A program made the translations under genes and the position numbers. Below, one piece after another: positions 18,426 through 35,660 of a stretch of 64,000 nucleotides of DNA. A model generated the notes under the pieces. It was not told where the DNA came from and ran no database searches. It saw only the letters and a list, made by a program, of their open reading frames with translations. The stretch is taken from NCBI GenBank assembly GCA_040399925.1, contig JBBARF010000002.1, positions 3,213 through 67,212 on the forward strand. The letters run 5' to 3'. Source of the DNA: Bacteriovoracaceae bacterium (GTDB taxonomy: Bacteria; Bdellovibrionota; Bacteriovoracia; Bacteriovoracales; Bacteriovoracaceae). Positions within the stretch are counted from its first letter, which is position 1. Every line of letters begins with the position of its first letter.

Positions 18426-19988
18426 TCATTGTTTCATCCATAGTTCATGGCCGCATTGTCCTACAAAAATCTTTCTGAATTCGACTCCTGATGGTGAAGT
18501 GACCGAAGTCTTATTTTTAAGATCGTTATAAAACCGTTTTTTCTCGTCCCAGTTCTCAACCATCTTTCCGTAGAAATCTTTGGGAGGATCATTAAGGTAT
18601 TGTGTTGAGTTATGTCTGGTGACACCGAAGAAAACTACTTTTTCAGTAATCTTGCTCCAGTCAATTCCCCAATGAGCGGAGGTGTATTTATCGATTTTTT
18701 CGTCGGTTGGGAAATACGGTTCTTTAGCTACAAGATGATTTTCAGAAACGGTGGAAGAAATAATTTTCGTGATCTGATCGTACTCACTAAAACATGCGTT
18801 TTGCATTTTCTTCATTGCAAAATAGTTAGGACTAATTCCAATCAGTTTTATTCCGACTAAAATCAAAACTGCCGCAGCAAGATTAGAATTTACTCGCCAA
18901 GGTAAATAATGAAGTACCAAAACAAGGACTAGTACCATAAATGCAATCACTAGTGGCATTGTATGATGATCGCCATTAAACGACATCTTTCTCATTAAAA
19001 TAGGAATGAAACTTATGATCACCAAGGCGACTATTTTAAAAGAAAATAATTTTTCTCGGTTTTGAGAAAAGATGCTACCAACAAGTATAATTGGAGCGAC
19101 ATAAATTAATTGGTTTCCTGCAATACCTAGAATCTTTGAAATAGACTCTAAATCACCTATAGAATGGACGCTGCTTTCAAGAAGCAAAAACCGAATGTGT
19201 TTATAGAAGCCGAAGTTTTGCGGAAAGCCTACTGCTAAGTAAGCCAAGAGCATGTAACTAACATACTTTAGTGTGAGAGAAAGATTTTTTTTATTTAAAG
19301 GTACTATGAGAAGTAACAAGATCCCAGGTATGAAAATGGAGGTTGACCGCTTTACCGCCATGGCCAAGCCCCAAGTGAAGGCTGAAATAATTAGAATACG
19401 AAGATTCTCTTTTTCCGACAGAAAGCGAGCAAACATATATACAGCGATAGCAGTAAAGACATTTAGGAGATGCTCGGGATGAGGCCGAAAAATCCATTCA
19501 GTCCACATCGGTATTTGTAGTGTCGAGAGAAGGAAGAACATTCCAAAAAGTGGAACGATATAAACAGTTCCAAAAAATACCCATCCTATAAACAGACCCA
19601 AACTATACAATGAGAAAAGCGAAACAAGCTTGAGAGCAAAATTATGAGACTTTTCTCTGCCTTCTAGAGATGTCAGATTACCATTTTGCAATGGTACTAA
19701 ATCGGCAATTGACTGAGAAAGCCGGTAATAAAGGTTTCCATACGGGGCAAAATGATTCGAATTGTACCATCTGGTGGCCATAGAAGTTTCAATGGCCCTC
19801 CCCCCATCATTGTCGCCAGCAAAGACATAGCCCTTGTGTGTTGAGGTCTCATAGAGCGGAATCGACAAGTTAATGAGCAAATAAGCTGAAATCATTAGCG
19901 AGAATAACCATGAAACAACTCTGAAGGTATCCGAGATTAAGTGGTGGCTTCTTAAGAGAGAAAACTGCTGTAAAATAAATGCTTTCAA
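18426..19988 (-). CDS. Polytopic membrane protein, GT-C (ArnT/PMT-like) glycosyltransferase candidate
   Basis: About 11 TM helices, first-loop acidic motif DNDGG, conserved-type GLAMAVK, soluble C-terminal domain. Confidence 0.55.
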   Translation of the reverse strand: MKAFILQQFSLLRSHHLISDTFRVVSWLFSLMISAYLLINLSIPLYETSTHKGYVFAGDNDGGRAIETSMATRWYNSNHFAPYGNLYYRLSQSIADLVPLQNGNLTSLEGREKSHNFALKLVSLFSLYSLGLFIGWVFFGTVYIVPLFGMFFLLSTLQIPMWTEWIFRPHPEHLLNVFTAIAVYMFARFLSEKENLRILIISAFTWGLAMAVKRSTSIFIPGILLLLIVPLNKKNLSLTLKYVSYMLLAYLAVGFPQNFGFYKHIRFLLLESSVHSIGDLESISKILGIAGNQLIYVAPIILVGSIFSQNREKLFSFKIVALVIISFIPILMRKMSFNGDHHTMPLVIAFMVLVLVLVLHYLPWRVNSNLAAAVLILVGIKLIGISPNYFAMKKMQNACFSEYDQITKIISSTVSENHLVAKEPYFPTDEKIDKYTSAHWGIDWSKITEKVVFFGVTRHNSTQYLNDPPKDFYGKMVENWDEKKRFYNDLKNKTSVTSPSGVEFRKIFVGQCGHELWMKQ

Positions 19989-20032: not shown

Positions 20033-21373
20033 TTGACTACTAAAATACAAAATTTGATTTCTTTAAATAGGAGTTTTGCTTTGCGAAATAATGTCATTGA
20101 AGCATCAAAAGCTTTTTTTCAACAACAGGGCGTTAAGAAGATTGTTCCAGGCACGGATTATATCCCTGTATCTGGAAAAGTTCTGGAAGAAGACGATCTG
20201 ACCAATCTTATTGAATCTTGCCTCGACCTCTGGTTAACCACCGGTCGTTTTGCTAAAGATTTTGAAAAGCAGTTCGCTACTTTCATGGAACAAAAATACT
20301 GTTTACTCGTCAATTCTGGATCATCGGCCAATCTAGTTGCTTTCAGTGCTCTGACTTCACCAGTTCTTGGAAAAGATATGGTTAAAGTTGGGGATGAAGT
20401 TATTACGGTCGCTGCTGGTTTTCCAACGACGGTCAATCCGATCATTCAATGTGGCTGTATTCCAGTTTTCGTCGATGTCGAAGCTGATACCCACCAAGTG
20501 GACATTACTCTTTTAGAAAAAGCTTTAAGTCCTAAAACTTCAGCAGTGATGATTGCCCATACTCTGGGAAATCCTTTCAACGTTAAAGCGGTTAAAGAAT
20601 TTTGCGACAAGCATGATCTTTGGCTGGTTGAAGATTGTTGTGATGCTGTTGGTGCTCGCCACCACGGTAAGATGATAGGAACTTTCGGTGATATCGCTAC
20701 AGTGAGCTTTTATCCTGCTCACCATATGACTATGGGTGAAGGCGGAGCTGTTCTCATGTCTGAGCATCGTTTGAAAAAGATTGCAGAAAGTTTCCGTGAC
20801 TGGGGTCGTGACTGTTGGTGCCCGACTGGAAAAGATAACTCATGCAATAATCGTTTTGGTCAGAAAATGGGCGAATTGCCAGAAGGCTATGATCATAAAT
20901 ATATCTACACTCACATTGGTTACAATCTCAAAGTGACGGATATGCAAGCGGCCATTGGTCTGTCTCAACTTCGTAAGCTTCCTAAGTTTATTGAAATGAG
21001 AAATGCCAATGCAAAATATCTTTCAACTAAACTTGAACATCTTACCCAGTTCATTAACTTGCCTAAAGTTACTCCTGATAGTGAGCCGAGTTGGTTTGGA
21101 TATCCGATTACCATTAAGGATCCTCGCATTTCAAGAAACGCTCTGGTTAAATTTCTTGAAGCTAATAAAATTGGAACTCGTTTGCTCTTCGCTGGAAATC
21201 TTTTACGCCAACCTCTTTATGAGCATGCTCCCAAGAGAGTCGTGGGTGAACTGAAGAATACCGATAAAATTATGAATGATACTTTCTGGACTGGAGTTTA
21301 TCCGGCGATCAAAGAAGTTCACTTAGATTATATCGCTTTAAAAATTGAAGAAGGAATTAAGGCACAACTATGA
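20033..21373 (+). CDS. rfbH: CDP-4-keto-6-deoxyglucose 3-dehydrase E1 (RfbH/DdhC)
   Basis: IPVSGKV, NSGSSANL, SFYPAHHMTMGEGG, RDWGRDCWC Fe-S Cys motif, RLLFAGNL. Confidence 0.93.
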   Translation: MTTKIQNLISLNRSFALRNNVIEASKAFFQQQGVKKIVPGTDYIPVSGKVLEEDDLTNLIESCLDLWLTTGRFAKDFEKQFATFMEQKYCLLVNSGSSANLVAFSALTSPVLGKDMVKVGDEVITVAAGFPTTVNPIIQCGCIPVFVDVEADTHQVDITLLEKALSPKTSAVMIAHTLGNPFNVKAVKEFCDKHDLWLVEDCCDAVGARHHGKMIGTFGDIATVSFYPAHHMTMGEGGAVLMSEHRLKKIAESFRDWGRDCWCPTGKDNSCNNRFGQKMGELPEGYDHKYIYTHIGYNLKVTDMQAAIGLSQLRKLPKFIEMRNANAKYLSTKLEHLTQFINLPKVTPDSEPSWFGYPITIKDPRISRNALVKFLEANKIGTRLLFAGNLLRQPLYEHAPKRVVGELKNTDKIMNDTFWTGVYPAIKEVHLDYIALKIEEGIKAQL

Positions 21374-22140
21374 AAGTCGCAATTCTCGCAGGTGGATACG
21401 GAACAAGATTAAGTGAAGAGACCGACATTAAACCAAAACCAATGGTTGATATTGGTGGAAAGCCCATCATCTGGCACATCATGAAACACTATTCTCATTA
21501 CGGGCATAATGAATTCGTCATCCTTTGTGGTTACAAGAGCTATTACATTAAAGAATATTTCGCGAACTATTTTCTTCATCAGAGTGACGTTACGTTTGAT
21601 ATTAAAAATAATAAAATGGAAATTCACAACAACACTAGTGAACCATGGAAAGTGACTTTGGTTGATACCGGTCTTGAAACAATGACTGGCGGGCGTGTGA
21701 AACGGGCTGAGAAGTTTTTAAAAGATGATACCTTTCTTCTTACTTACGGTGATGGAGTGAGTGACATTGATCTTGAAAAATTGATCTCCTTCCATAAGAA
21801 GAATGGCAAGCTCATGACTCTGACTTCGGTTCAACCTGATGGCAGATTCGGAGCACTTGAACTTGAAGGAGATTTGATCCGTAAATTTGCCGAGAAACCA
21901 AAAGGCGACGGTTCTTGGATCAATGGCGGCTTCTTTGTATGTGAGCCGAAAATTTTTGATTACATTACTGAAGGTGACGCAACAATTCTCGAAAGATCTC
22001 CTCTGGAAAAACTCGCTAACGAAAGACAACTCGTGGCTTTCAAACACGAAGGATTCTGGAGACCAATGGACACTCTTAGAGATAAAGTTCAGCTGGAACA
22101 ACTATGGGCCGATAAGAAGGCTCCATGGAAGGTTTGGTAG
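21370..22140 (+). CDS. rfbF: Glucose-1-phosphate cytidylyltransferase
   Basis: ILAGGYGTRLSEET..KPKPMV, VDTGLETMTGGRVKR, LTYGDGVSD. Confidence 0.95.
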   Translation: MKVAILAGGYGTRLSEETDIKPKPMVDIGGKPIIWHIMKHYSHYGHNEFVILCGYKSYYIKEYFANYFLHQSDVTFDIKNNKMEIHNNTSEPWKVTLVDTGLETMTGGRVKRAEKFLKDDTFLLTYGDGVSDIDLEKLISFHKKNGKLMTLTSVQPDGRFGALELEGDLIRKFAEKPKGDGSWINGGFFVCEPKIFDYITEGDATILERSPLEKLANERQLVAFKHEGFWRPMDTLRDKVQLEQLWADKKAPWKVW

Positions 22141-23201
22141 TGAATAAGGCGTTCTGGAAAGGGAAAAGAGTTTTTGTTACCGGTCATACTGGCTTCAAAG
22201 GAAGCTGGTTAGTGATGATACTCAAAGATGCTGGCGCCGTTGTGGCCGGATATTCGCGAGATATCCCGACAACTCCATCGTTTTTTGAAACTTGTAAAGT
22301 AAGTGAGCTTTTAGAAAAAGATTATCGTGGTGATATTGTTAATCATCAAAAATTTAAACAAGACCTCTTTGATTTTTCTCCTGAGATCGTTTTCCACTTG
22401 GCGGCTCAGCCACTGGTTAGATTATCTTATGCAGACCCATTTGAAACCTACAACACAAACGTCATGGGCACACTTTCCGTCTTAATGGCGGCGAGCGAGT
22501 GCTTAAGTGTAAATACCATCGTCAATATTACGACCGACAAATGTTATGACAATAAAGAGTGGGCATGGGGCTATAGAGAAAATGATTCTCTAGGCGGGCA
22601 TGATCCTTATTCTAGCTCCAAAGCATGTGCTGAAATATTATCTGCCAGTATCAGAGATTCTTTTCTAACGAAGAGTCATAAGAAAATGGCCACTGCCCGC
22701 GCTGGAAATGTAATCGGTGGCGGTGACTGGGCACAGGACAGGATTGTTCCGGATTTTATGCGTGCCTTTGAATCAAAAACTAAAATACAAATTCGTAACC
22801 CCTATGCCACTCGTCCATGGCAACATGTGATTGAGCCTCTTGTAGGTTATATGACTTTGGCCGAGAAGCTTTATAATGATGGCAGCTACTCTGGTGCTTG
22901 GAATTTTGGTCCAGATGAGAAAGACTGTAAGAATGTTGAATACATTGTCTCCACACTTCATGAAATCGTTCCTGAACACAAGGGCATTGAAGTTCAGAAA
23001 AGTGCTCATCAACCGCATGAAGCTAATTTCTTAAAGCTTGATTGCAGTAAGGCCAAATCACAGCTTGGTTGGTATCCAAAGTTTGATGTCAAAGAAGCAC
23101 TCACTTTATCGGCTGACTGGTATGTGAAGTTCCTTCAGGGTGATGATATGCAGAAAGTTTCTTATGATCATATCAATCGATACTTTCAACATGAAAAATG
23201 A
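22125..23201 (+). CDS. rfbG: CDP-glucose 4,6-dehydratase
   Basis: FWKGKRVFVTGHTGFKGSWL, HLAAQPLVR, TTDKCY, DPYSSSK, RPWQHV. Confidence 0.95.
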   Translation: MEGLVVNKAFWKGKRVFVTGHTGFKGSWLVMILKDAGAVVAGYSRDIPTTPSFFETCKVSELLEKDYRGDIVNHQKFKQDLFDFSPEIVFHLAAQPLVRLSYADPFETYNTNVMGTLSVLMAASECLSVNTIVNITTDKCYDNKEWAWGYRENDSLGGHDPYSSSKACAEILSASIRDSFLTKSHKKMATARAGNVIGGGDWAQDRIVPDFMRAFESKTKIQIRNPYATRPWQHVIEPLVGYMTLAEKLYNDGSYSGAWNFGPDEKDCKNVEYIVSTLHEIVPEHKGIEVQKSAHQPHEANFLKLDCSKAKSQLGWYPKFDVKEALTLSADWYVKFLQGDDMQKVSYDHINRYFQHEK

Positions 23202-24177
23202 AGTTCTTGCGAAGTTAAATGGCAAACGTCTTTTCTTAACTGGTGGCACCGGTTATTTCGGTAAATCATTTTTGCAATGCCTGAAGTCGTATGATGTTGA
23301 ACTGAAAATCTTGACCCGCAACAGTCGTAGCTTTATCGAAAAATATCCTGGCTTATATGATTGTAAACGTATGTCCTTTATTGATGGTGATATCCAGACA
23401 TTTGATTTTCCCAAAGAACACTTTGATCACATCCTTCATTTTGCGACTCCCGCAGACGCAATTTGGAATGTCACTCATCCTCTTGAGATGTTTGATACGA
23501 TTGTAAACGGTACCCGCAGAGTTTTAGATTTCGCTGTAGAAGCGAAAATTAAGTCGGTGCTTTTTGCTAGTTCAGGTGCCGTTTATGGGAAGCAACCTCG
23601 GGAGTGTTCTCACATTCCTGAAGAGTATTTAGGTGCTCCGGACGTTACTCAGAATAATTCATCCTACGGTGAAGGCAAACGAGTCGCCGAGTATTTAGGA
23701 ACCTCCTATTCCCGCAAATATGGCTTCGATTTTAAGATTGCCCGCTGTTTTGCTTTTATCGGACCTCATCTTGATCCTGATGGAACCTATGCTATCGGCA
23801 ATCTTTTAAAAGATGCTGTTCAGGGCAAAACATTAACTATTCAGGGCGATGGAACGCCCTACAGATCGTTTCTCTATAGTGATGATCTGGTTTTATGGTT
23901 GGTGAAAATTCTGTGTGATGGTAAAAACTCCATCCCTTATAACGTAGGATCGGATCAAGATTTAAGCATCAAGGACCTGGCAGAGAAAATCGTAAAGACT
24001 CTCAATCTAAATAATGAAATCATAATTAAAAGTCAGACTACTCCTGGTAAACCGATCGAACGATATGTTCCATCTATCGAACGGGCCAAAAGGGACTTGG
24101 GTCTACAGGTATATACTTCTCTCGACGAATCCATCAAACTAACAGCTGCTTTTTATGCTGAAAAAATAGGCTTATAA
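23191..24177 (+). CDS. NAD-dependent epimerase/dehydratase (extended SDR), possible side-chain ketoreductase
   Basis: TGGTGYFG, ASSGAVYG, YGEGK, ARCFAFIGP. ATG23191 is preferred over 23140. Confidence 0.8.
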   Translation: MKNEVLAKLNGKRLFLTGGTGYFGKSFLQCLKSYDVELKILTRNSRSFIEKYPGLYDCKRMSFIDGDIQTFDFPKEHFDHILHFATPADAIWNVTHPLEMFDTIVNGTRRVLDFAVEAKIKSVLFASSGAVYGKQPRECSHIPEEYLGAPDVTQNNSSYGEGKRVAEYLGTSYSRKYGFDFKIARCFAFIGPHLDPDGTYAIGNLLKDAVQGKTLTIQGDGTPYRSFLYSDDLVLWLVKILCDGKNSIPYNVGSDQDLSIKDLAEKIVKTLNLNNEIIIKSQTTPGKPIERYVPSIERAKRDLGLQVYTSLDESIKLTAAFYAEKIGL

Positions 24178-24179
24178 AA

Positions 24180-26027
24180 ATGAATGATACGACTAAAATT
24201 AAAGTTTCAGACTACCTCGCGCAATTCTTGAAAGATAAAAAGATTGAACACGTTTTTGGAATCATTGGTTCCGGAAACGCTCATATTTTCGACTCAATCA
24301 ATAGTCTTGGCTATAGTGAGATCGTTTGTGTTCACCACGAGCAAGCCGCAGTTATGGCCGCTGGAACTTACTATCGTATGACCGGAAAAATTAGTGCCGT
24401 GTTGTTAACAACAGGTGCTGGCTCACTGAACGGGATTACAGGAAACATTAGTCTCTGGATGGATTCCATTCCGGCGTTAATTCTTTCTGGAAATGAAAAT
24501 TCGAAATTCACTACTCCTGAAAACAAATTACGTATCTGGGGTATCCAGGGCTACAACAGCACTAAGGTTGTTGAAGATTATAATAAATACGTTATGCGCG
24601 TAATGAATCCTGCATCGATAAGTCTTGAATTAGAAAAAGCTTATGACATTGCCGGGAAGGGCAGACCGGGTCCTGTTTGGCTTGATATTCCTATGAATAT
24701 CCAGGCGGCCCAGGTGGCAGTTGCTGAACTTCAGAAATACGATAAGCCAATTGAAACTTCTTTCAAACCAACTAAGAGCGTTCAGACTTTTGATCAAGGT
24801 ATTGATCAGATTGTAGCTGGTCTTCAAAATGCTAAACGTCCAGTTATCTGGCTGGGTCACGGCATACGTCTGGCCGGAGCTGTAGAATTAATTAAACCAC
24901 TACTCAAAAACTTAAATTCACCTGCGCTTATTACCTGGAACGGAATCGACATGCTTGATTCTGATCATCCATCTCTCTTTGGCAGAGCGGGAATCTATGG
25001 CCAGAGAGCTGGAAACTTTGTTCTTCAGAACTGTGATTATCTTTTAACGATTGGAACCAGACTCGCTATTCCGCAAGTAGGATATGAGATCAATGAACTC
25101 GCAAGAGACGCTAAAATTGCATGCATTGATGTCGATCATCTTGAAGTTGAAAAATATGCTCAGCGCTTTGAAACCTGTCTCTGTGTTGATGCCAAAGAGT
25201 TTATGGAAAAACTCATTCAGAAAACGGATTCCTTAAAAGGAACGTTCTCAGCTTCCTACAGCGACTGGTGGAAGCAATGTCATTTGTATAAAGAGCGTTT
25301 CCCATGGGTCATGCCAGAACATAAAGACAAAGACGGCTTCATCAACTCTTACCCGTTCATGGAAAAGCTCTCTAAACACCTTAAAAAAGATTCAATTGTT
25401 GTTACAGACATGGGGACTGCTCTCTTGAGTGGTCACCAGGTTTTGAAAATGAAAGATCAGCAAAGACTCATGACTTCAACCGGTCTTGGCGAAATGGGTT
25501 TTGGTTTGCCGGCTGCTATCGGTGCTTCTTTTGGAAGTAACCACGGTGAAGTGGTATGCCTAAACTGCGATGGCGGGATGATGATGAATTTGCAGGAACT
25601 GCAAACCATCGCTCATCACAAGCTTCCTGTTAAAATCATCATCTTCAATAATGATGGTTACCTGATGATTAAACATACTCAAAAAGCCCTCTTTCAAGGC
25701 CGGTACTCTGGTACCGATCAGAAATCAGGGGTTACGTGTCCTGACTTCACGGAGCTGGCTAAAGCCTTTAAATTTGAAAATTTCCAGATTCGCACATGGG
25801 AAAACTTCGATGAGGTCATCCCTAAAATGATGAACACCAAAGGTCCTACTATCGTCGAAGTGTTCATGCACCCAGAGCAGTTATTTGTTCCGAAGCTATC
25901 CCTTGCTCCTCAGAAAGATGGTTCAATCGTCTCTCCCCCGATGGAGGATTTGTTCCCGTTCCTGGATAGAGCAGTATTGAAAGAAAATATGATCATTGGA
26001 ATTCATCCAAAATCTGAAAAGGTTTAA
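24180..26027 (+). CDS. ThDP-dependent carboligase (YerE-like, acetolactate-synthase fold) with CDG motif
   Basis: HHEQAA, GRPGPVWLDIP, GEMGFGLPAAIG, cofactor motif CDG-x24-NN (C463 at 25566). Confidence 0.85.
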   Translation: MNDTTKIKVSDYLAQFLKDKKIEHVFGIIGSGNAHIFDSINSLGYSEIVCVHHEQAAVMAAGTYYRMTGKISAVLLTTGAGSLNGITGNISLWMDSIPALILSGNENSKFTTPENKLRIWGIQGYNSTKVVEDYNKYVMRVMNPASISLELEKAYDIAGKGRPGPVWLDIPMNIQAAQVAVAELQKYDKPIETSFKPTKSVQTFDQGIDQIVAGLQNAKRPVIWLGHGIRLAGAVELIKPLLKNLNSPALITWNGIDMLDSDHPSLFGRAGIYGQRAGNFVLQNCDYLLTIGTRLAIPQVGYEINELARDAKIACIDVDHLEVEKYAQRFETCLCVDAKEFMEKLIQKTDSLKGTFSASYSDWWKQCHLYKERFPWVMPEHKDKDGFINSYPFMEKLSKHLKKDSIVVTDMGTALLSGHQVLKMKDQQRLMTSTGLGEMGFGLPAAIGASFGSNHGEVVCLNCDGGMMMNLQELQTIAHHKLPVKIIIFNNDGYLMIKHTQKALFQGRYSGTDQKSGVTCPDFTELAKAFKFENFQIRTWENFDEVIPKMMNTKGPTIVEVFMHPEQLFVPKLSLAPQKDGSIVSPPMEDLFPFLDRAVLKENMIIGIHPKSEKV

Positions 26028-26030
26028 GAA

Positions 26031-26969
26031 ATGTCAGGCGCAGAATTTATCAGTATTGTTACACCTTGCTTCAATGAAGAAGGAAATATCGAAGAGTTGG
26101 TTAAACAAATCAGAGATGTTTTCATTAAGATGAATCACACGAACTATGAGCACATTATCATTGATAATGATTCACAGGATAATACTCAGAATCTTCTGCG
26201 TGAATTGGCGGCAAAAGACCCTAAGATCAAAGTGATCATGAATAACCGAAACTTCGGTCATATTCGTTCACCTTATTATGGTCTACTTCAAGCGAAGGGT
26301 GATGCTGCTGTCTTGATGGCCTCTGATCTGCAGGATCCGCCTGAGATGATTATCGATTTCGTTAAAAAATGGCGAGAAGGATATAAGGTCGTTCTGGGCG
26401 TGAAAACTCAGAGTGAAGAGTCGCCGATCATGTTCGCCATCCGCAAGGCCTATTACGATTTCGTGGCCCGTGTATCTGATACAAAACTTGTTAAAAACAA
26501 TACCGGTTTCGGACTGTATGACAAAAAAGTCATTCAGATCTTAAACGATATCCAGGACCCATATCCATACTTTCGTGGCTTAATCTCTGAATTAGGATTT
26601 AAGTCCGCTAAAATTGATTTCCACCAGCCGAGTCGCAAGCGTGGTGTAACCAGCAATAACTTTTATAAGCTCTACGATATCGCAATGCTGGGGATTACCA
26701 GTCACTCGAAAGTTCCGCTTAGAATGGCAACAATGTCAGGGTTCTTGTTATCGATTTTGAGTTTTATTACGGCCATGGTTTACTTCGTCTTGAAACTTAT
26801 CTTTTGGGATCAGTTCCAGCTGGGAATTGCCCCAATGCTCATTGGGATCTTCTTCTTTATGTCGATTCAGCTTTTTTTCATTGGCATTATAGGTGAATAC
26901 GTTGGATTCATCCATACACAGGTGATGAAGCGACCGCTGGTGACTGAAAAAGAACGTATTAACTTTTAA
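26031..26969 (+). CDS. GT2 polyprenol-phosphate glycosyltransferase (GtrB/DPM-like)
   Basis: SIVTPCFNEEGNI, IDNDSQD, RNFGH, MASDLQDPP, two C-terminal TM helices. Confidence 0.9.
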   Translation: MSGAEFISIVTPCFNEEGNIEELVKQIRDVFIKMNHTNYEHIIIDNDSQDNTQNLLRELAAKDPKIKVIMNNRNFGHIRSPYYGLLQAKGDAAVLMASDLQDPPEMIIDFVKKWREGYKVVLGVKTQSEESPIMFAIRKAYYDFVARVSDTKLVKNNTGFGLYDKKVIQILNDIQDPYPYFRGLISELGFKSAKIDFHQPSRKRGVTSNNFYKLYDIAMLGITSHSKVPLRMATMSGFLLSILSFITAMVYFVLKLIFWDQFQLGIAPMLIGIFFFMSIQLFFIGIIGEYVGFIHTQVMKRPLVTEKERINF

Positions 26970-26973
26970 GTTA

Positions 26974-28029
26974 TTACCTTCCTAAACGGTACCAACGAAT
27001 AGATTTCTCAATTGCTGTTTTAGTATCAATCTTCAATTTAACGTTGAAAGTACTTTCAAATTTACTGATTGATGGAAGAAACTTAGTTAAAAGTCCCGAG
27101 TGAACAGGCACTGTTGAAACGATGCCTGATTTTCCATCAAAGTTCTGATCAACGATCTGAGCGGTAGCTCTTAATGATTTACCGTCGTCACTTCCAATAT
27201 TAAACGATGCTCCTGAAGTTTTGTTAGAAAGCGCCAGAAGAGTCCAGAAGGCCATTTCTGTAGGATACATGTAACTACGAACAGTTTCCTCATCACCGAT
27301 AATTCTGATCGGCTGCGAGGCAAGACCGTCACGAATGAAATTATTGATCGCCCATGGACGCTCTAGCGACTGATAAGGTCCAATGAATGCGAAAGGGCGA
27401 AGAACTGTAAGTGGTATCTTAAAAGAACTTCTATAAGACTGTGCCATCGATTCTGCAGCTCGTTTAGATTCAGCGTATGTTGAATTTAGAGACGAACAGC
27501 TGAGACCATAGAACGATTCTTCTTTGATATTCTCAGAAGAATAGGGCTGCATGCCGTAAACAAGACCAGAACTATACTGAAGGAAGTTAGCTAAATTATC
27601 GAGTCTCGTGCTGGCATTTAAAATCTGGTTAGTTCCAGTAATAATATCGTTCATGACTCTGACCGGGTCAGAAGCATGCTCTCTATTATCGGGAGTTCCT
27701 GCGAGGTGAATAACATAAGAAACATCTCTATCGATTTCAGAAAGATTCTTAATGTCGCCCTGAAGGAGCTTGATATTTTTTTTATTGAAAACTTCCGGAA
27801 ACTCAACGGCCACAGAGTTCATTCTGCGAGAGTGAGCAATAACCTGGATATTAGAACTGTGGTTTTCATTCAGAAAATTAATTAATCCTATGATCCATTT
27901 TCCAACAAACCCAGAAGCCCCTGAAATAAAGATCTGCTTGTTTTTTAGGAAATCAAGACGGCTGACGTTCCCACTAGCAAGCATTTCAGTAATATCTAAA
28001 TTGAACGCATCAATCTGTTTTAAATTCAT
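26974..28029 (-). CDS. NAD-dependent epimerase/dehydratase (extended SDR)
   Basis: ISGASGFVG, SSGLVYG, YAESK, LRPFAFIGP. Confidence 0.85.
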   Translation of the reverse strand: MNLKQIDAFNLDITEMLASGNVSRLDFLKNKQIFISGASGFVGKWIIGLINFLNENHSSNIQVIAHSRRMNSVAVEFPEVFNKKNIKLLQGDIKNLSEIDRDVSYVIHLAGTPDNREHASDPVRVMNDIITGTNQILNASTRLDNLANFLQYSSGLVYGMQPYSSENIKEESFYGLSCSSLNSTYAESKRAAESMAQSYRSSFKIPLTVLRPFAFIGPYQSLERPWAINNFIRDGLASQPIRIIGDEETVRSYMYPTEMAFWTLLALSNKTSGASFNIGSDDGKSLRATAQIVDQNFDGKSGIVSTVPVHSGLLTKFLPSISKFESTFNVKLKIDTKTAIEKSIRWYRLGR

Positions 28030-29042
28030 GTGGTCATCCTTACTTGCTTAGAAAGCTCAATCGCAACTTCAACAATAACGTCTTCCTGACCGGCAACAAC
28101 TTTACGCTCACCGAGCTTAAAGAAAATATCACGAGGGTCAACGTTGTATTCTTTGGCAAGTCTGTTCACTGGAGCTGCGAAACCTGAGAATACGCCGGCA
28201 ATTCCACTTACGATACTTGTCGACTTGATACTAGGAACTTCAGTCATCAAATGCTTCTCAGCGATGTCTGCAGCATCTAATACGCTATAAAGATCAATCC
28301 CTGTAGAGAAGCCTTCTTTCTCTAATACCGGAACTAAAACTTCTAACTGAGTATTTCCCGCACCAGCACCGAAACCTCTGGCACATGCGTCTAAAATCGT
28401 TGCGCCGTTCTGGGCTGCAATGATTGAGTTAATCACGGCCATCCCTAGGTTGTTGTGACCATGGAAACCAACTCGGATCTTTAAATTAGCTACGAGAGCT
28501 TTAATTCTTTCTTCAATATCTCTCGGGAAGTAGGCACCAGCTGAATCCATGATAACCACAGCTTCGGCTCCGTAAGTTTCCATCTTTTTAGCTTCTTCAA
28601 CCAGAGTTTCCACGGAGGCCATGTGGCTCATCATCAGTACTCCGAAAACTTCTTTGCCTTTCTCACGAACATAACTGATGTGATTTCTTGTGACGTCAGC
28701 TTCGGTACAGTGAGAAGCAATTCTGAAAACATCTACACCAATATCCAGTGCCAGATTGATATCTTTTTTGATTGTCGCAAATCCAGGAATTACGTGAATG
28801 CTGAGTTTTGAATGATTGAGATTCTCACGAGCGGTTTCAAGAAGCGTCTTATCCGTTTCGCGACAAATACCAACCTGAATTGAAGAAGCACCCAAACCAT
28901 TTCCATGGCCAACTTCAATCACTGGAATACGCGCCTTATCAGCAGCTTTACAATAAAGGGCAATTTGCTCTTTAGTGAGTTGGTGTTTGATAGCGTGGTT
29001 TCCATCTCGTAGAGTAGGGTCACAAATTGTGATATGTTTCAT
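28026..29042 (-). CDS. dmpG: 4-hydroxy-2-oxovalerate aldolase (DmpG/MhpE family)
   Basis: DPTLRDGNH, IEVGHGNGLG, HCTEAD, DSAG, GFHGHNNLG, DPRDI. GGAG supports ATG29042. Confidence 0.92.
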   Translation of the reverse strand: MKHITICDPTLRDGNHAIKHQLTKEQIALYCKAADKARIPVIEVGHGNGLGASSIQVGICRETDKTLLETARENLNHSKLSIHVIPGFATIKKDINLALDIGVDVFRIASHCTEADVTRNHISYVREKGKEVFGVLMMSHMASVETLVEEAKKMETYGAEAVVIMDSAGAYFPRDIEERIKALVANLKIRVGFHGHNNLGMAVINSIIAAQNGATILDACARGFGAGAGNTQLEVLVPVLEKEGFSTGIDLYSVLDAADIAEKHLMTEVPSIKSTSIVSGIAGVFSGFAAPVNRLAKEYNVDPRDIFFKLGERKVVAGQEDVIVEVAIELSKQVRMTT

Positions 29043-29054
29043 TTGATTCTCCAA

Positions 29055-29927
29055 TTATTTATTTTTGGCGTATTCTTCGGCCATGCTGATGGCTGCACAG
29101 TTGATAATATCCAGATTCCCGGCATATTTTGGTAGGTAATCACCAAGTCCCTGAACGCGAACCATAACCATAATTCTACCGTTTTCAAAAACTGGAGGTA
29201 CTACAATTCTGTAGCCTGGAACATAAGCTTGAATTTTAGCTTCCATTTCGCGTATCGGACCTTCTAATTTCTTAGCGTCACACTCTTTAACTTTGGCAAA
29301 TACCGTTGTCTGCATATCGATGCACGGAACAGCAGGGTTAAGATTCAAAATCGCCTTAACGTTCTTGCAGCCAGACAATTCCTGAATACCCATTTCCGTA
29401 TTATCGATATATTCATCAATATTGGCACGAGTACCAGGACCAGCACTTCTTGAAGCAATGCTTGATACTGTTTCAATATACTCAATTCCTTCAACATGCT
29501 TCATAAGCGTATAAGCAAGGGGAGTAGAGGCCTGTCCACCACATGTAACCATGTTGATGTTATCGTAACCAAGGCAGTCTTTACCGTTGATTGCAGGCAC
29601 ACACATTTTTCCGAATTGAGACGGAGTCATGTCGATACATTTAATTCCAAGCTTTCGAAGAATTGGGGCATGGATGAGGTGTGAGGCTGCAGTTGTAGCA
29701 TCAAACACCAGATCACAAATGGTTGGGTTTTGTTGGATGGCCTCGATTCCCTGATCCGATATCGGAACATTTTTGGAATTGGCTTTTTGCATACCGGGAG
29801 AAGCGAGGTTTCGGCCGATGAACAATGTGCATTCAAGGTGCTCAGATCTTAGGATCTTAAGCAACAGATCTGTACCGATATTTCCACTGCCAAGAATGGC
29901 AACTCTTAGTTTTTTGCCCGATATCAA
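29055..29927 (-). CDS. dmpF: Acetaldehyde dehydrogenase (acylating) (DmpF/MhpF family)
   Basis: ILGSGNIGTDL, FDATTA, NMVTCGGQA, SAGPGTRANIDEY, YAGNLDI. Confidence 0.93.
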   Translation of the reverse strand: MISGKKLRVAILGSGNIGTDLLLKILRSEHLECTLFIGRNLASPGMQKANSKNVPISDQGIEAIQQNPTICDLVFDATTAASHLIHAPILRKLGIKCIDMTPSQFGKMCVPAINGKDCLGYDNINMVTCGGQASTPLAYTLMKHVEGIEYIETVSSIASRSAGPGTRANIDEYIDNTEMGIQELSGCKNVKAILNLNPAVPCIDMQTTVFAKVKECDAKKLEGPIREMEAKIQAYVPGYRIVVPPVFENGRIMVMVRVQGLGDYLPKYAGNLDIINCAAISMAEEYAKNK

Positions 29928-30141
29928 AAGAACCCCCTAAGGATGCATAACTTAATTTTTTTTATGAGATTATAACAAATAGGGAATGTTGTCGTGAGTA
30001 AAATAGACATTTGATACATGGCGTGAGCAAGGGGTATTTTTTTAATCAATTTAATTAGTTATTTATTAACAAGCTTAGATATATATCAATTTACGGTTCA
30101 TTTTTACCCTAATCCATGTAATCTCATTATGAGATAAATAA

Positions 30142-31683
30142 ATGACTTCAAATAAACCATATCTAAATCCTTACTTACAGATTCTTCTTGGAAGTCTGAT
30201 AGTCTTCTTTTTGGCCTATTGCTTTCACTTTAATGCGGATTTGAGTGATGAAGGGTTCTATCTCTACTATTTCCAGCAGGGCCACAAGGCCGTTTCCTTT
30301 AACTTTTATCATGTTTTTGTTTCACCGATCGGAAGTCTTTTTTCCCACTATTTGATTGGATATCGATATTTGAGGTTGGTTCTTATATTAGGATCTAGCT
30401 TATTCCTTTATTTCTCCATGCCGGTGGATAAGCGGAGAAATAACTGGCTTCTTCCCTTATGTCTTGGTCTCTTGTATTTCAATCTACTTTCTACCTTTTC
30501 ATACAATACGGCTGTTCTCTGTGGAGCAAGTCTTGCATTAGCTCTGAACATCAAAATTCAGTATTCGACATTCAAAAAAACGATTTCTTCCATCCTAGGA
30601 ATATTGTGCTTTTTTTCTTTTTCCGCCAGGTTTGGTTCTGGAATTATCATTCTTGTTTTGAGCTCAATTTCTTTTTTTCTTTATATAGAAAATAAACGAG
30701 AGGCGATGAAATGCATCGCACTTTTATGGGTCATGTTCACCCTTTGTTTCGTGATTTATTTGTTCATGTTCAAAGAAAACTTTTTTTTGATGCTTGAAAC
30801 CTTACCTGCAATTACAAAGAGTACTCATCTTGGACTTTTTGATAAGTATCTGAGTCAAACCACTAGATTCATCCTCAGAAGTGTCTTCCCGCCACTTTTA
30901 TTAGGCCTACTTTCATTAAAGTATTTCCCTCGCAAGTACTTTTCAGTTTTATTGGCCTATCTTAGCTGGTTCATTGTTAAAAATATTTTCTACGAGTACG
31001 ATTTTTCGAAGTTTGGGTATTATGCATCCGGCTTAATTCTCACTCTTGCGATCATAGAAATTTATACCAAATACACTAAAGAAACTTTTTTCTATCTTTT
31101 GTTTCCACTGGCGCTGTATTTTTCATCTTCTTTGGGGACGAATAATAATCTTTTTGAATTTGCCGCCTATAATTCACTTTTATTTTACCCTTTGATTGGC
31201 AGTTTAAGATTGAGTTCACTTAAATTTCAGATTTTAAGTAGTTTATTGTTCATCCTGGCATTGGTGGGAATTTATAAGAATCAGTATCATCAAACTTATC
31301 GATCTTTGCCTCGCTCAGAACTGACATTCGTCGCGAGCAATTATCCCGCGCTAAGAGGCATAAAAGTAAATCAAATGACTGAGTTGAAACTAGCTAATCT
31401 TACACAAATGCTGACGAGCTCAGGGTTCAACTTTCAATCAGATCAAATAGTGGTTTACCCTAATATGCCAGGCCTTGTTTCTTTCTTAAACCTCAAGGCT
31501 TTTGGGAATCCATGGAATATTGATATCTATCCTAAGTCTCATATTTCCAACTGCATATTCTATAAAGTTGAACCAATTAATGCCGAAGGTCGGGTTTTCC
31601 TTTACTCGGAAAAAGACCTACCGACTGAAATGACTGAATGTTTAAAAAGGCCAATGATTGAGCTTCATGGAAAGTCTCAATAG
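30142..31683 (+). CDS. Polytopic membrane protein, GT-C-like glycosyltransferase (or polymerase/ligase) candidate
   Basis: About 12 TM helices, acidic motif DLSDEGFY right after TM1, soluble C-terminal domain. Confidence 0.55.
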   Translation: MTSNKPYLNPYLQILLGSLIVFFLAYCFHFNADLSDEGFYLYYFQQGHKAVSFNFYHVFVSPIGSLFSHYLIGYRYLRLVLILGSSLFLYFSMPVDKRRNNWLLPLCLGLLYFNLLSTFSYNTAVLCGASLALALNIKIQYSTFKKTISSILGILCFFSFSARFGSGIIILVLSSISFFLYIENKREAMKCIALLWVMFTLCFVIYLFMFKENFFLMLETLPAITKSTHLGLFDKYLSQTTRFILRSVFPPLLLGLLSLKYFPRKYFSVLLAYLSWFIVKNIFYEYDFSKFGYYASGLILTLAIIEIYTKYTKETFFYLLFPLALYFSSSLGTNNNLFEFAAYNSLLFYPLIGSLRLSSLKFQILSSLLFILALVGIYKNQYHQTYRSLPRSELTFVASNYPALRGIKVNQMTELKLANLTQMLTSSGFNFQSDQIVVYPNMPGLVSFLNLKAFGNPWNIDIYPKSHISNCIFYKVEPINAEGRVFLYSEKDLPTEMTECLKRPMIELHGKSQ

Positions 31684-31773: not shown

Positions 31774-32832
31774 ATGAAGGCAAAATGCTTATTAGTTACT
31801 GGCGGTGCTGGCTTTATCGGCTCGGCCCTGATTCGACATTTAATCAAAACGACTGACTATACCGTAATTAATTTAGACAAGCTTACCTATGCGGGAAATC
31901 TAGAATCTCTGGCCGAAATTGAAAATTCAAACCGATACACCTTTGTTAAAGGTGATATTTGCGACAAAACGTTGGTCAGCAAACTTTTAAAAACCCATCA
32001 GCCCTCTGCAATCATGCATCTTGCAGCAGAGTCGCATGTGGATCGCTCTATCGATGGTCCGTCTGAGTTTATTCAAACAAACATCATCGGTACGTTCAAT
32101 CTTCTCGAATGCGCTTTAGAGTACTGGAAATCTGAAAATCAAAATCCAGATTTTAGATTTCAGCATATTTCGACGGATGAAGTTTATGGATCGCTTGGTG
32201 AAACAGGTCTCTTTAAAGAAACGACTCCCTATGATCCTAGTTCTCCCTATTCGGCCTCTAAAGCTTCTTCGGATCATCTCGTCAGAGCATGGGAACGCAC
32301 ATACGGTCTGCCAGTTCTCGTAACAAATTGCTCTAACAATTATGGTCCTTATCACTTTCCTGAAAAACTGATTCCCTTAATTATTCAAAATGCACTCCAA
32401 GGAAAACCTTTGCCTGTCTATGGTGATGGAAAACAAATTCGTGATTGGCTCTTTGTTGAAGATCATGCCAAGGCCCTTTTTGCGGTCCTTGAAAAAGGTA
32501 AAGTCGGCGAGACCTACAATGTAGGCGGGGATTCTGAGAGACAAAATATCGATGTCGTAAAAAAAATCTGCGGCTTTCTGGATGAATACGTTCCTGATTC
32601 TGCGTTCAGGCCTCATGCTCAACTCATTACCTACGTTGCTGATCGACCAGGGCATGACAGAAGATATGCCATTGATTGCAGTAAACTCAAAAATGAACTG
32701 GGTTGGAAACAAGAAGAGAACTTTGAGTCGGGCATAAAGAAAACAGTTCAATGGTTTCTTGATAACCAGGCATGGGTTAAACAGGTTCTTGCCAATAAAT
32801 ACTCTGGCGAAAGATTAGGATTAAAAAAATGA
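31774..32832 (+). CDS. rfbB: dTDP-glucose 4,6-dehydratase
   Basis: [45 protein letters not shown]. Confidence 0.97.
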
Positions 32833-33707
32833 AAGGTATTATTTTAGCGGGTGGAAGTGGTTCGAGACTTTTTCCAATTACTCGCGGAGTTTCAAAACAG
32901 CTTTTACCTATTTATGACAAGCCGATGATTTATTATCCGCTGTCGGTTTTGATGTTGGCGGGAATTCAGGACATTCTAATCATCACAACTCCTGAGGATG
33001 CCGATAGTTTTAAAAGGCTCTTGGGTAATGGTGAAATATTCGGAGTAAGACTCACTTACGCGGCTCAACCTAAACCTGATGGTCTTGCCCAAGCTTTCAT
33101 CATTGGCGAAGAATTCATTGGGAAAGATAACGTATGTTTAATTCTTGGGGATAATATTTTCTATGGTCAGGGTTTCACACCGATACTCAAGAGAGCGATC
33201 GAAAATAATAAGGGTGCAACAATCTTTGGTTATAAAGTTAAAGATCCTGAACGTTACGGTGTTGTTGAGTTTGATAAAAACATGAAGGTTATTTCGATTG
33301 AAGAAAAACCTACGAAGCCAAAATCTAATTACGCAGCCACTGGACTCTACTTTTACGATAACCGGGTTTCATCTATTGCGAAGACGATTAAGCCTTCTGC
33401 TAGAGGTGAGCTTGAGATCACAACTTTGAATAATGAATATCTAAAAATGGGCGAACTCAATACTGAAATCCTTGGTCGTGGATTTGCTTGGCTCGATACC
33501 GGAACTCATGACAGTTTGATTGAGGCCGGTCACTATGTTGAGACTATTCAAAATATGCAGGGACTAAAAGTGGCATGTTTGGAAGAGATTGGATGGCGTA
33601 TGGGATGGCTGAGCGATGCCGAGCTCGCTGAACAGGCCCAGTTCAATTCTAAGAATGAATACGGTCAGTATTTGAAACAACTCCTCATTGAAGCAGGAAA
33701 GGCATGA
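32829..33707 (+). CDS. rfbA: Glucose-1-phosphate thymidylyltransferase
   Basis: [46 protein letters not shown]. Confidence 0.97.
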
Positions 33708-34099
33708 GCAAAAAGTTAATGGATCTGAAAGGCCATACCGACGGAAGAGGACTACTTGTTGCTCTTGAGTCTAATAAGTCTGTACCGTTTGATATCAAAC
33801 GTATTTATTATCTGACAGATTTAAAAAAATCAGAACCGCGTGGATTTCACGCTCATAAAAACTTAAAGCAAGTTGCTATCTGTCTGCAAGGGAGCTGTCG
33901 CTTTATTCTGGATGACGGCAAGACACGTGAAGAATTTATTCTTTCAAGTGCTACACAAGGTTTACTCATTGAAGAAATGTATTGGCGTGAAATGGATCAA
34001 TTCAGTGATGGATGTGTGATCCTGGTTCTTGCAAGCGAGCTTTACGATGAGTCTGATTATATTCGTGACTACAATGAATTCAAAAAGCGAGTTCTCTAA
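33704..34099 (+). CDS. fdtA: dTDP-4-keto-6-deoxyhexose 3,4-ketoisomerase (FdtA/QdtA cupin)
   Basis: [27 protein letters not shown]. FdtA and QdtA cannot be separated by eye. Confidence 0.85.
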
Positions 34100-34554
34100 T
34101 GATTCATCCTTTGAGTGACGTGAAATCTCAAACTATTGGAACGAGTACAAATATTTGGCAATTCGTAGTTGTTTTACCCAAGGCTAAAATAGGTGAGAAT
34201 TGTAATGTTTGTTCTCATTGTTTTATCGAGAATGAAGTCGTCATTGGCAATAATGTGACCATTAAGAATAATGTCCAGATCTGGGATGGTATTACGATCG
34301 AAGATGATGTTTTTATCGGTCCGAATGCTACATTCACCAATGATGTTTATCCTCGCTCAAAGGTTTATCCGGATTCATTTCCGAAGACTCTTGTTCAAAA
34401 GGGTGCCTCCATTGGAGCGAATGCCACCATCCTTCCTGGTATTACGATCGGAGCAGGGGCGATGATTGGTGCTGGCTCTGTTGTAACCAAGGATGTACCT
34501 GCAAAAGCATTAGTCGTAGGGAATCCAGCTAAATTAGTAAGGATGTTAGAATGA
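34099..34554 (+). CDS. Left-handed beta-helix N-acetyltransferase (FdtC/QdtC/WxcM-like)
   Basis: [12 protein letters not shown], hexapeptide repeats, GNPA. Confidence 0.85.
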
Positions 34555-35660
34555 AGACGGTGGAATTTCTTAGTTTAAAAGAACTGAATGCTCAGTTTAA
34601 TGAAGAGCTCAAAGCTGCATCGAACAGAGTTATCGATTCTGGTTGGTATATTGGTGGTAGCGAATTAAGTCATTTTGAAAAAGAGTTTGCGACGTACTGT
34701 GGAGTCAAAGAGTGCATTGGTGTGGCCAATGGCCTTGATGCCCTTATCCTGACATTGAGAGCTTGGAAGGAAATGGGGAAACTCAAGGACGGTGATGAAG
34801 TCATCGTTCCGGCTAATACCTACATTGCAAGTGTTCTGGCAATTACTGAGAACAACCTCGTTCCCGTGTTGGTTGAGCCTGATGAGCAAACCTATAACCT
34901 TGACCCAAATTTAATTCGAAAAGCGATTACGCCTAAAACGAAAGTCATTCTTCCTGTTCATTTATATGGTCAGCTAGCGGATATGCCTGCGATCATGAAA
35001 ATTGCGAAGGAATTTAATCTCCTTGTTTTAGAAGATTCAGCACAGGCCCATGGTGCTCAGATTGATGGAATTAAAGCTGGGAACTGGGGAGATGCTTCAG
35101 GGTTTAGTTTTTATCCTGGTAAGAATCTTGGGGCACTCGGTGATGCAGGCGCTATTACCACCAATGATCCTCAGCTTGCGGACACTCTTCGCGCTCTAAG
35201 AAATTATGGTTCTCACGAAAAGTATAAAAATCTGTTTAAAGGTGTGAATAGTCGTTTGGATGAAATCCAAGCGGCATTCTTATCGGTGAAATTGAAGTAT
35301 CTTGATACTCATACAGAAATGCGAAGAAAAGTAATTGAGCAGTATCTGGAAGGGATTACTAATCCGCTGATTAAATTGCCGGTGGTATCTAATCCAGATC
35401 AGCATGTGTGGCATTTGTTTGTTGTTAGATGCGAATCTAGATCAAGTCTTATAGAACACTTGAAGAGAAATGATATTCAAACCTTGGTTCATTATCCGAT
35501 CCCTCCCCATAAACAGGATGCTTATAAAGAATTTAAGCACCTCTCGTTTTCATTAACAGAAAAAATTCACGATGAAGTTCTGAGTTTGCCACTCTCGCCG
35601 GTCATGACCGATGAAGATCTACTTAGGGTCATTGATGCGATCAATGCTTACCAAGCATGA
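34551..35660 (+). CDS. fdtB: dTDP-3-amino-3,6-dideoxyhexose aminotransferase (FdtB, DegT family)
   Basis: [43 protein letters not shown]. Confidence 0.88.

Follow-up and report, generated by a model that had tools for sequence, protein, structure and literature searches.

The question raised by the stretch of DNA analyzed here, a 64,000-nucleotide window from a Bacteriovoracaceae bacterium (GenBank assembly GCA_040399925.1, contig JBBARF010000002.1, positions 3,213 to 67,212 of the forward strand), is why an acetaldehyde dehydrogenase and a pyruvate aldolase resembling DmpF and DmpG of aromatic catabolism are encoded together with a short-chain dehydrogenase/reductase (SDR) of the nucleotide-sugar type, amongst genes for deoxysugar biosynthesis. 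Judged from sequence and gene context, the dmpF/dmpG-like pair very probably constitutes the side-chain branch of an erwiniose-type pathway, in which it would supply the donor for a C4-branched 3,6-dideoxyhexose.

The pair and the SDR gene are packed tightly on the minus strand (Table 1), and the grouping of dmpF and dmpG with a sugar SDR proposed by a first-pass annotation of the window stood with its coordinates unchanged. The stop codon of dmpF (TAA, 29057-29055) directly abuts dmpG, the dmpG stop and SDR start share an ATGA overlap (28029-28026), and the three genes appear to be arranged as an operon, with the SDR predicted to be translationally coupled to dmpG. The start of dmpG is probably the ATG at 29042 and not the alternative TTG at 29054, since a GGAG lies six bases upstream of the ATG. 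A scan for consensus promoters and terminators across 26500-30300 returned 10 sites against 8.8 expected from shuffled sequences, nothing above chance, and is therefore uninformative on transcription. By domain content, the dmpF-like protein possesses a Semialdehyde-DH-type NAD domain, an AcetDehyd-dimer domain (Pfam, 6e-49) and the catalytic cysteine of the family, scores 368 bits against NCBIfam TIGR03215 (cut-off 282), and amongst PDB entries matches 7z3s best (3.6e-80), with DmpF itself (1nvm_B) at 3.6e-66. The dmpG-like protein combines an HMGL-like TIM barrel (PF00682, 153 bits) with a C-terminal DmpG_comm domain (PF07836, 89 bits). Its score against TIGR03217 is 391 bits, where the cut-off is 286, and DmpG (1nvm_A) is matched at 6.7e-82. 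A PDB search with the SDR (26974-28029) returned no close solved homolog.

The window holds no dioxygenase, hydrolase or hydratase gene, in agreement with the remark in the first-pass annotation that no catechol dioxygenase, hydrolase or hydratase lies near the pair, and the meta-cleavage pathway elsewhere in the genome that it had named as speaking against its proposal did not come to light in model and tblastn searches of the assembly (3.67 Mb, 195 contigs, 92% complete). Only one gene of the whole assembly encodes a DmpG_comm domain and nothing in it matches the DmpE model, while tblastn with meta-pathway proteins of P. putida and E. coli recovered only the dmpF/dmpG pair, generic aldehyde dehydrogenases and weak alpha/beta-hydrolase matches; DmpE, catechol 2,3-dioxygenase, MhpB, DmpH and 4-oxalocrotonate tautomerase (4-OT) were all missing from this 92%-complete genome. 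Within that coverage, the pair is not part of a meta-cleavage (dmp/xyl/bph/mhp) gene set with neighboring dioxygenase, hydrolase/dehydrogenase, hydratase and decarboxylase. By contrast, 14 of 18 dmpG loci drawn at random from Gammaproteobacteria have DmpE/DmpH neighbors and none of the 18 has neighbors from the rfb genes or for an enzyme dependent on thiamine diphosphate (ThDP). A catabolic role was rejected on the genome-wide search for the meta-pathway and the comparison with these 18 loci.

The company that the pair does keep was explored through the ThDP-dependent carboligase encoded next to the trio, a relative of JanthE with a Cys-Asp-Gly (CDG) motif. With 29 homologs of this enzyme aligned, one genome per species was scanned and the best 80 loci were taken. 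The first-pass annotation had suggested asking whether dmpFG co-occur with CDG-type enzymes across genomes, and homologs of both genes (54-74% identity) are indeed present in 74 of the 80 loci, with three of the six exceptions being contigs shorter than 4.5 kb. The arrangement is highly regular: dmpF is directly followed by dmpG in 69 of the 74 loci and dmpG by an SDR homolog in 68; 64 loci have the ThDP gene within 300 bp, and 70 have it on the same strand. Most of the 80 loci also contain rfbF, rfbG and rfbH. Carriers of this cassette span approximately 15 phyla, the topology of the aldolase tree is at odds with taxonomy, and a close homolog of the ThDP enzyme was detected in none of 24 genomes from the same genus, a distribution by which the cassette behaves like a mobile module for glycans. 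No further cassette turned up amongst 400 Gammaproteobacteria drawn evenly. One carrier, Pseudomonas sp. 286 (L071/L111; G041:C61:241169-242170), has a cassette aldolase with one in-frame TGA and no homolog of the second SDR (see below) detected adjacent to it, and this copy may be decaying or may reflect a sequencing error.

Residues of the aldolases were compared, in DmpG numbering, for 97 proteins comprising 75 from cassettes (the window protein and 74 homologs) and 22 catabolic enzymes, the latter consisting of four references (P. putida, Rhodococcus RHA1, Thermus and E. coli MhpE) and 18 from the gammaproteobacterial draw. The equivalents of Arg17, Asp18, His21, His200 and His202 in DmpG are kept in the window aldolase and in all 74 cassette homologs. 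Positions 88 and 291 separate the two sets completely, with His/Phe in 75/75 cassette aldolases and Leu (one Ile) and Tyr in 22/22 catabolic aldolases. The window aldolase, which has His87 and Phe289 in its own numbering, lacks the Leu88/Tyr291 pair (Leu87/Tyr290 in BphI) responsible for 4S stereocontrol in the catabolic enzymes. It therefore belongs to the family in its fold and chemistry without being functionally equivalent to the 4S-specific catabolic enzymes. Wild-type BphI is 4S-specific and its Y290F variant loses stereocontrol (PMC3962088), while the double variants L87N/Y290F and L87W/Y290F cleave only the 4R enantiomer (Baker and Seah 2012, reviewed in PMC3962088). These engineered enzymes resemble the cassette aldolases in having a polar or bulky residue at 87 along with Phe at 290, though they carry Asn or Trp at 87 where the cassette aldolases have His, and the 4R stereochemistry of the latter is only predicted. 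The cassette aldolases thus appear to carry a natural counterpart of the engineered 4R switch, which fits the use of the (R) acid by ErwE (see below). At position 90 (Leu89 in BphI), where an L89A change allows BphI to accept longer aldehydes (PMC3962088), all cassette aldolases have a bulky Ile or Met.

Phylogenetically, a maximum-likelihood tree gathers the catabolic aldolases to one side of a branch supported at 98% and all 75 cassette aldolases in one clade supported at 95%. The nearest relative of the window aldolase in the tree is from a metagenome-assembled genome of Bdellovibrio (74% identity), and its nearest cassette homologs are in Bdellovibrionota. A further group of DmpG homologs (P0160, P0169, P0171 and approximately 70 more) are 620-710 aa long and 30-37% identical, share an RDY..HHH pattern, carry Tyr where DmpG has the catalytic His21 and His where it has Tyr291, and look like a large family of a fused or extended form.

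The dehydrogenases are divided in the same manner. The window protein has the catalytic Cys129 (in TCGGQA) and a GSGNIGTD nucleotide-binding loop, and across the alignment the catalytic cysteine is kept in 81/81 dehydrogenases and the GxGxxG loop is conserved. At the end of strand beta-2, where 22/22 catabolic dehydrogenases have Gly-Ile/Val-Asp, the window enzyme reads Gly38-Arg39-Asn40 and so lacks the acidic residue (Gly-Ile-Asp) typical of NAD+-dependent members of the DmpF/MhpF family; Arg39 is present in 75/75 cassette dehydrogenases and Asn40 in 70/75, with position 40 being Asn or Ser across the set. Loss of the acidic residue and gain of an arginine at this site of the Rossmann fold points to NADP(H), suggesting that the cassette dehydrogenases use NADPH, a cofactor that, if correct, would help drive the otherwise unfavorable reduction of acetyl-CoA.

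A precedent for an anabolic pair of this kind is the erwiniose locus of Pectobacterium atrosepticum SCRI1043, in which the acetaldehyde dehydrogenase ErwJ shows 41% similarity to BphJ and the aldolase ErwI 43% similarity to BphI (PMC9306805). ErwJ and ErwI were proposed to convert acetyl-CoA and pyruvate to (R)-4-hydroxy-2-oxopentanoate (Steitz et al. 2022, PMC9306805), which the ThDP enzyme ErwE would add to CDP-4-keto-3,6-dideoxyglucose before ErwF reduces the branch to yield erwiniose; ErwE accepts 4-hydroxy-2-oxopentanoate with (R) selectivity and rejects pyruvate (PMC9306805). All components of such a cassette, a BphI/BphJ-like pair, a YerE-like ThDP enzyme, an NAD(P)H reductase and the genes for CDP-4-keto-3,6-dideoxyglucose, occur within 20033-29927 of the window, and 74 related loci contain this set too. 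In gene set and logic the two loci are the same, with the Erw proteins compared by their published description, and the (R) donor preference of ErwE matches the 4R aldol predicted for the window aldolase. They differ in host, the window being from an uncultured bacterium, in gene order, in the convergence of the window trio with its ThDP gene, and in the extra SDR and PgfS/ArnC-like glycosyltransferase of the window. The yersiniose enzymes YerE and YerF of Yersinia pseudotuberculosis share the acceptor sugar, ThDP-dependent branching at C4 and a follow-up ketoreduction, but YerE uses pyruvate as donor for a C2 branch, has the canonical Gly-Asp-Gly (GDG) motif and needs no aldolase-dehydrogenase pair.

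The ThDP enzyme of the window has all three ThDP domains, with C463-D464-G465 in place of Gly-Asp-Gly, a motif invariant across the 29 aligned homologs, and matches JanthE (PDB 8rph) at 811 bits, which makes it a member of the CDG-motif JanthE type. JanthE of Janthinobacterium sp. HH01 (PDB 8rph/8rpi/8rpj), with which it has the CDG motif in common, accepts 4-hydroxy-2-oxovalerate, and its physiological substrates are reported as unidentified (PMC12188165, 2025). A JanthE-like copy in Rugamonas rivuli (L058), to which the window enzyme is approximately 57% identical, differs from JanthE at a handful of 610 residues (1388 bits) and belongs to a cassette that reads rfbF-rfbG-rfbH-ThDP-dmpF-dmpG-SDR. 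Studies of JanthE have treated it as a biocatalyst, and this genomic context supplies a candidate physiological role, with erwiniose-type branching suggested as its natural reaction.

Taken together, the route in the window would begin with the dmpF-like dehydrogenase reducing acetyl-CoA to acetaldehyde, probably with NADPH, and handing it to the partner aldolase, which would join it to pyruvate to form (4R)-4-hydroxy-2-oxopentanoate. The CDG-type ThDP enzyme would decarboxylate this acid and transfer the 3-hydroxybutanoyl unit so formed to C4 of CDP-4-keto-3,6-dideoxyglucose, the product of RfbF, RfbG and RfbH, after which the co-transcribed SDR would reduce the ketone of the branch, leaving a 1,3-dihydroxybutyl group, and the sugar would probably pass by way of a polyprenyl-phosphate carrier, loaded by the family 2 glycosyltransferase (GT2) of the locus, to a surface glycan. 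The flow from acetyl-CoA through acetaldehyde and an aldol product to the ThDP donor had been put forward in the first-pass annotation and finds support in the synteny, in the lack of a meta-pathway and in the clade-specific residues. For use of the (R) acid in preference to pyruvate, and for a 1,3-dihydroxybutyl product, the support is indirect and comes from the 4R-type residues of the aldolase and from the acceptance of 4-hydroxy-2-oxovalerate by JanthE. The cassette enzymes form their own clade, with changes at the active site and the cofactor site that would suit an anabolic, 4R-specific role; we infer the in vivo direction, the use of NADPH and the structure of the final sugar. Set against DmpG/DmpF (1NVM), BphI/BphJ, MhpE/MhpF and HsaF/HsaG, the cassette pair has the same folds and domains (including the DmpG communication domain), the same metal-binding and catalytic residues and catalytic cysteine, and 40-45% identity, but stands apart in its separate clade, its His/Phe and Gly-Arg-Asn signatures, its lack of meta-cleavage neighbors and the opposite direction proposed for it.

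Several observations weigh against this assignment. The 80 loci were selected via the ThDP gene, so the linkage was measured from the ThDP side. The window trio is convergent with its ThDP gene, versus co-directional in 70 of the 74 loci. Three loci with ample flanking sequence (L035, L069 and L077) possess the CDG enzyme, an SDR and rfbFGH without dmpF or dmpG, and probably use another donor acid. The donors taken by JanthE-type enzymes include pyruvate and others (PMC12188165), and the ThDP enzyme alone therefore does not fix the donor in vivo. The proposed use of NADPH follows from the lost Asp and gained Arg by the general Rossmann-fold rule only. Finally, no E3 reductase (DdhD/AscD) is encoded in the module or in two related cassettes, and no protein with an FAD_binding_6 domain (PF00970), and hence no E3 partner for RfbH, was detected in the 92%-complete assembly. 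The three loci lacking the pair are candidates for a different donor, e.g., pyruvate giving a yersiniose-like sugar, and the window module depends on 3-deoxygenation even though the search of its genome yielded no DdhD/AscD-type E3 for RfbH.

Three other explanations can be set against an erwiniose-type pathway. That the pair is an ordinary catabolic DmpFG/MhpEF couple cleaving 4-hydroxy-2-oxovalerate from aromatic or steroid meta-cleavage, placed near sugar genes by chance or mis-assembly, might be argued from both proteins exceeding the equivalog cut-offs that NCBIfam sets for the catabolic enzymes and from a misjoin reported elsewhere on the contig (12165-12200). However, the same neighborhood recurs in 74 loci from approximately 15 phyla, the hydratase, dioxygenase, hydrolase and decarboxylase of the pathway were not found in the genome, and the cassette proteins belong to a clade of their own and carry His88/Phe291 and Gly-Arg-Asn signatures seen in 0/22 catabolic homologs; the explanation is largely refuted and has become very improbable.

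A reversal of the order of steps, in which the ThDP enzyme adds an acetyl group from pyruvate as in yersiniose and the aldolase then uses acetaldehyde to lengthen this acetyl branch while it is attached to the sugar nucleotide, was raised as an alternative by Steitz et al. themselves (PMC9306805) and would agree with the use of pyruvate by JanthE-type enzymes. It is nonetheless unlikely: ErwE rejects pyruvate (PMC9306805), and the cassette aldolase retains all of the DmpG residues for pyruvate and metal (R17, D18, H21, H200, H202), a site that binds a 2-oxo acid and would be expected to find no carboxylate on a 4-C-acetyl sugar. About equally unlikely is an anabolic role with another outcome, with propanal or glycolaldehyde as the aldehyde or with the keto acid routed to a non-sugar product, e.g., a gamma-hydroxy amino acid. 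Such an outcome has parallels in DmpFG-like pairs within a Streptomyces cluster for a non-ribosomal peptide synthetase (NRPS) and ketosynthase III (KSIII) and a Phaeobacter cluster for ATP-grasp proteins and an aminotransferase, and ErwE accepts C4 and C6 hydroxy-keto acids as well (PMC9306805). Yet position 90 is bulky in every cassette aldolase, so that an enlarging change like BphI L89A is absent, the minus-strand operon is without an aminotransferase, and the linkage to ThDP and rfb genes is very tight.

The two pairs outside sugar loci are of note in their own right. In Streptomyces sp. NBC_00726 (plasmid NZ_CP108984.1, L081:8072-10026), a dmpF-dmpG pair with an aldolase 58% identical to that of the window has Phe/Phe at the stereocontrol positions and Gly-Arg-Asp in the dehydrogenase, and is situated inside a natural-product cluster with genes for an NRPS, KSIII, acyl carrier protein, aminotransferase, cytochrome P450 and methyltransferase, a non-sugar anabolic use. 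In Phaeobacter piscinae (plasmid pP23_c, L082:9013-12278), a dmpG-dmpF pair (52% identity) has His/Cys at the stereocontrol positions and Gly-Arg-Asn. A class I/II aminotransferase gene comes after it and two ATP-grasp genes flank it, and the pair may help to make a gamma-hydroxy amino acid or a peptide.

With the erwiniose route published in 2022 (PMC9306805), the window locus is a new example and not a new mechanism. The comparative gain is a modest addition, namely two signatures, His/Phe for the aldolase and Gly-Arg-Asn for the dehydrogenase, by which anabolic DmpFG pairs can be told from catabolic ones. These signatures could be used to re-annotate thousands of genes automatically labeled as aromatic degradation and would make C4-branched sugars predictable from sequence; they indicate natural pyruvate aldolases with 4R selectivity, possibly linked to NADPH and of potential biocatalytic use, and suggest for JanthE-type carboligases a physiological role that can be tested. 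A broader reading has somewhat better than even chances of holding: that the cassette pairs are a distinct and ancient anabolic lineage instead of borrowed catabolic enzymes, with His88/Phe291 as a naturally fixed 4R switch and Gly-Arg-Asn as the mark of a change to NADPH that pushes the reduction of acetyl-CoA forward, that the whole CDG-motif ThDP family including JanthE attaches a unit from a C5 keto acid to C4 of CDP-3,6-dideoxyhexoses, and that erwiniose-like sugars are widespread components of surface glycans in approximately 15 phyla.

Table 1. Genes of the putative erwiniose-type module, in coordinates of the window
Feature	Coordinates	Strand	Remarks
dmpF/ErwJ-like acetylating acetaldehyde dehydrogenase	29055..29927	-	290 aa; Pfam, NCBIfam and PDB matches
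dmpG/ErwI-like class II pyruvate aldolase	28026..29054	-	342 aa from TTG, 338 aa from ATG 29042
Extended nucleotide-sugar-type SDR, ErwF/YerF-like candidate ketoreductase (branch C1' keto group)	26974..28029	-	351 aa; Pfam Epimerase
rfbH (E1 3-dehydrase), rfbF (glucose-1-phosphate cytidylyltransferase), rfbG (CDP-glucose 4,6-dehydratase)	20033..23201	+	NCBIfam equivalogs
Second extended SDR, epimerase or reductase	23140..24177	+	345 aa
YerE-like ThDP carboligase, JanthE family, CDG motif	24180..26027	+	615 aa; three ThDP domains
GT2, PgfS/ArnC type (polyprenyl-phosphate sugar synthase)	26031..26969	+	NCBIfam, below cut-offs

Ahead of the trio, the plus-strand genes run in the order rfbH, rfbF, rfbG, second SDR, ThDP gene and GT2. 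The three rfb genes score as equivalogs (rfbH, NF011936, 697 bits; rfbF, TIGR02623, 424 bits; rfbG, TIGR02622, 476 bits), and their products would jointly provide the acceptor CDP-4-keto-3,6-dideoxyglucose. Homologs of the second SDR (40-49% identity) are present in approximately 20 of the 80 loci, only a subset of the related cassettes, and those of the GT2 (50-63% identity) in approximately 25 of the 80. The GT2 scores 190 bits against PgfS and 125 bits against ArnC, each under the curated cut-off, and its type suggests delivery of the branched sugar on a lipid carrier. Genes located further downstream serve the synthesis of a dTDP-3-acetamido-3,6-dideoxyhexose or encode a Wzx-type flippase and additional glycosyltransferases, and by its gene content the region is classed as a surface-glycan locus.

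Two genes for multi-pass membrane proteins, at 18426-19988 (minus strand) and 30142-31683 (plus strand), flank the module and face outward, one being PMT_2/GT-C-like and the other without a Pfam match. Neither has homologs in the 80 related loci, placing both outside the conserved cassette, and any transfer step that they carry out would thus be lineage-specific. Beyond them, window positions 31774-35660 encode RmlB, RmlA, FdtA, a hexapeptide acetyltransferase and a DegT aminotransferase, the standard set for a dTDP-3-acetamido-3,6-dideoxyhexose, and with this set alongside the module the glycan likely holds two unusual deoxysugars.

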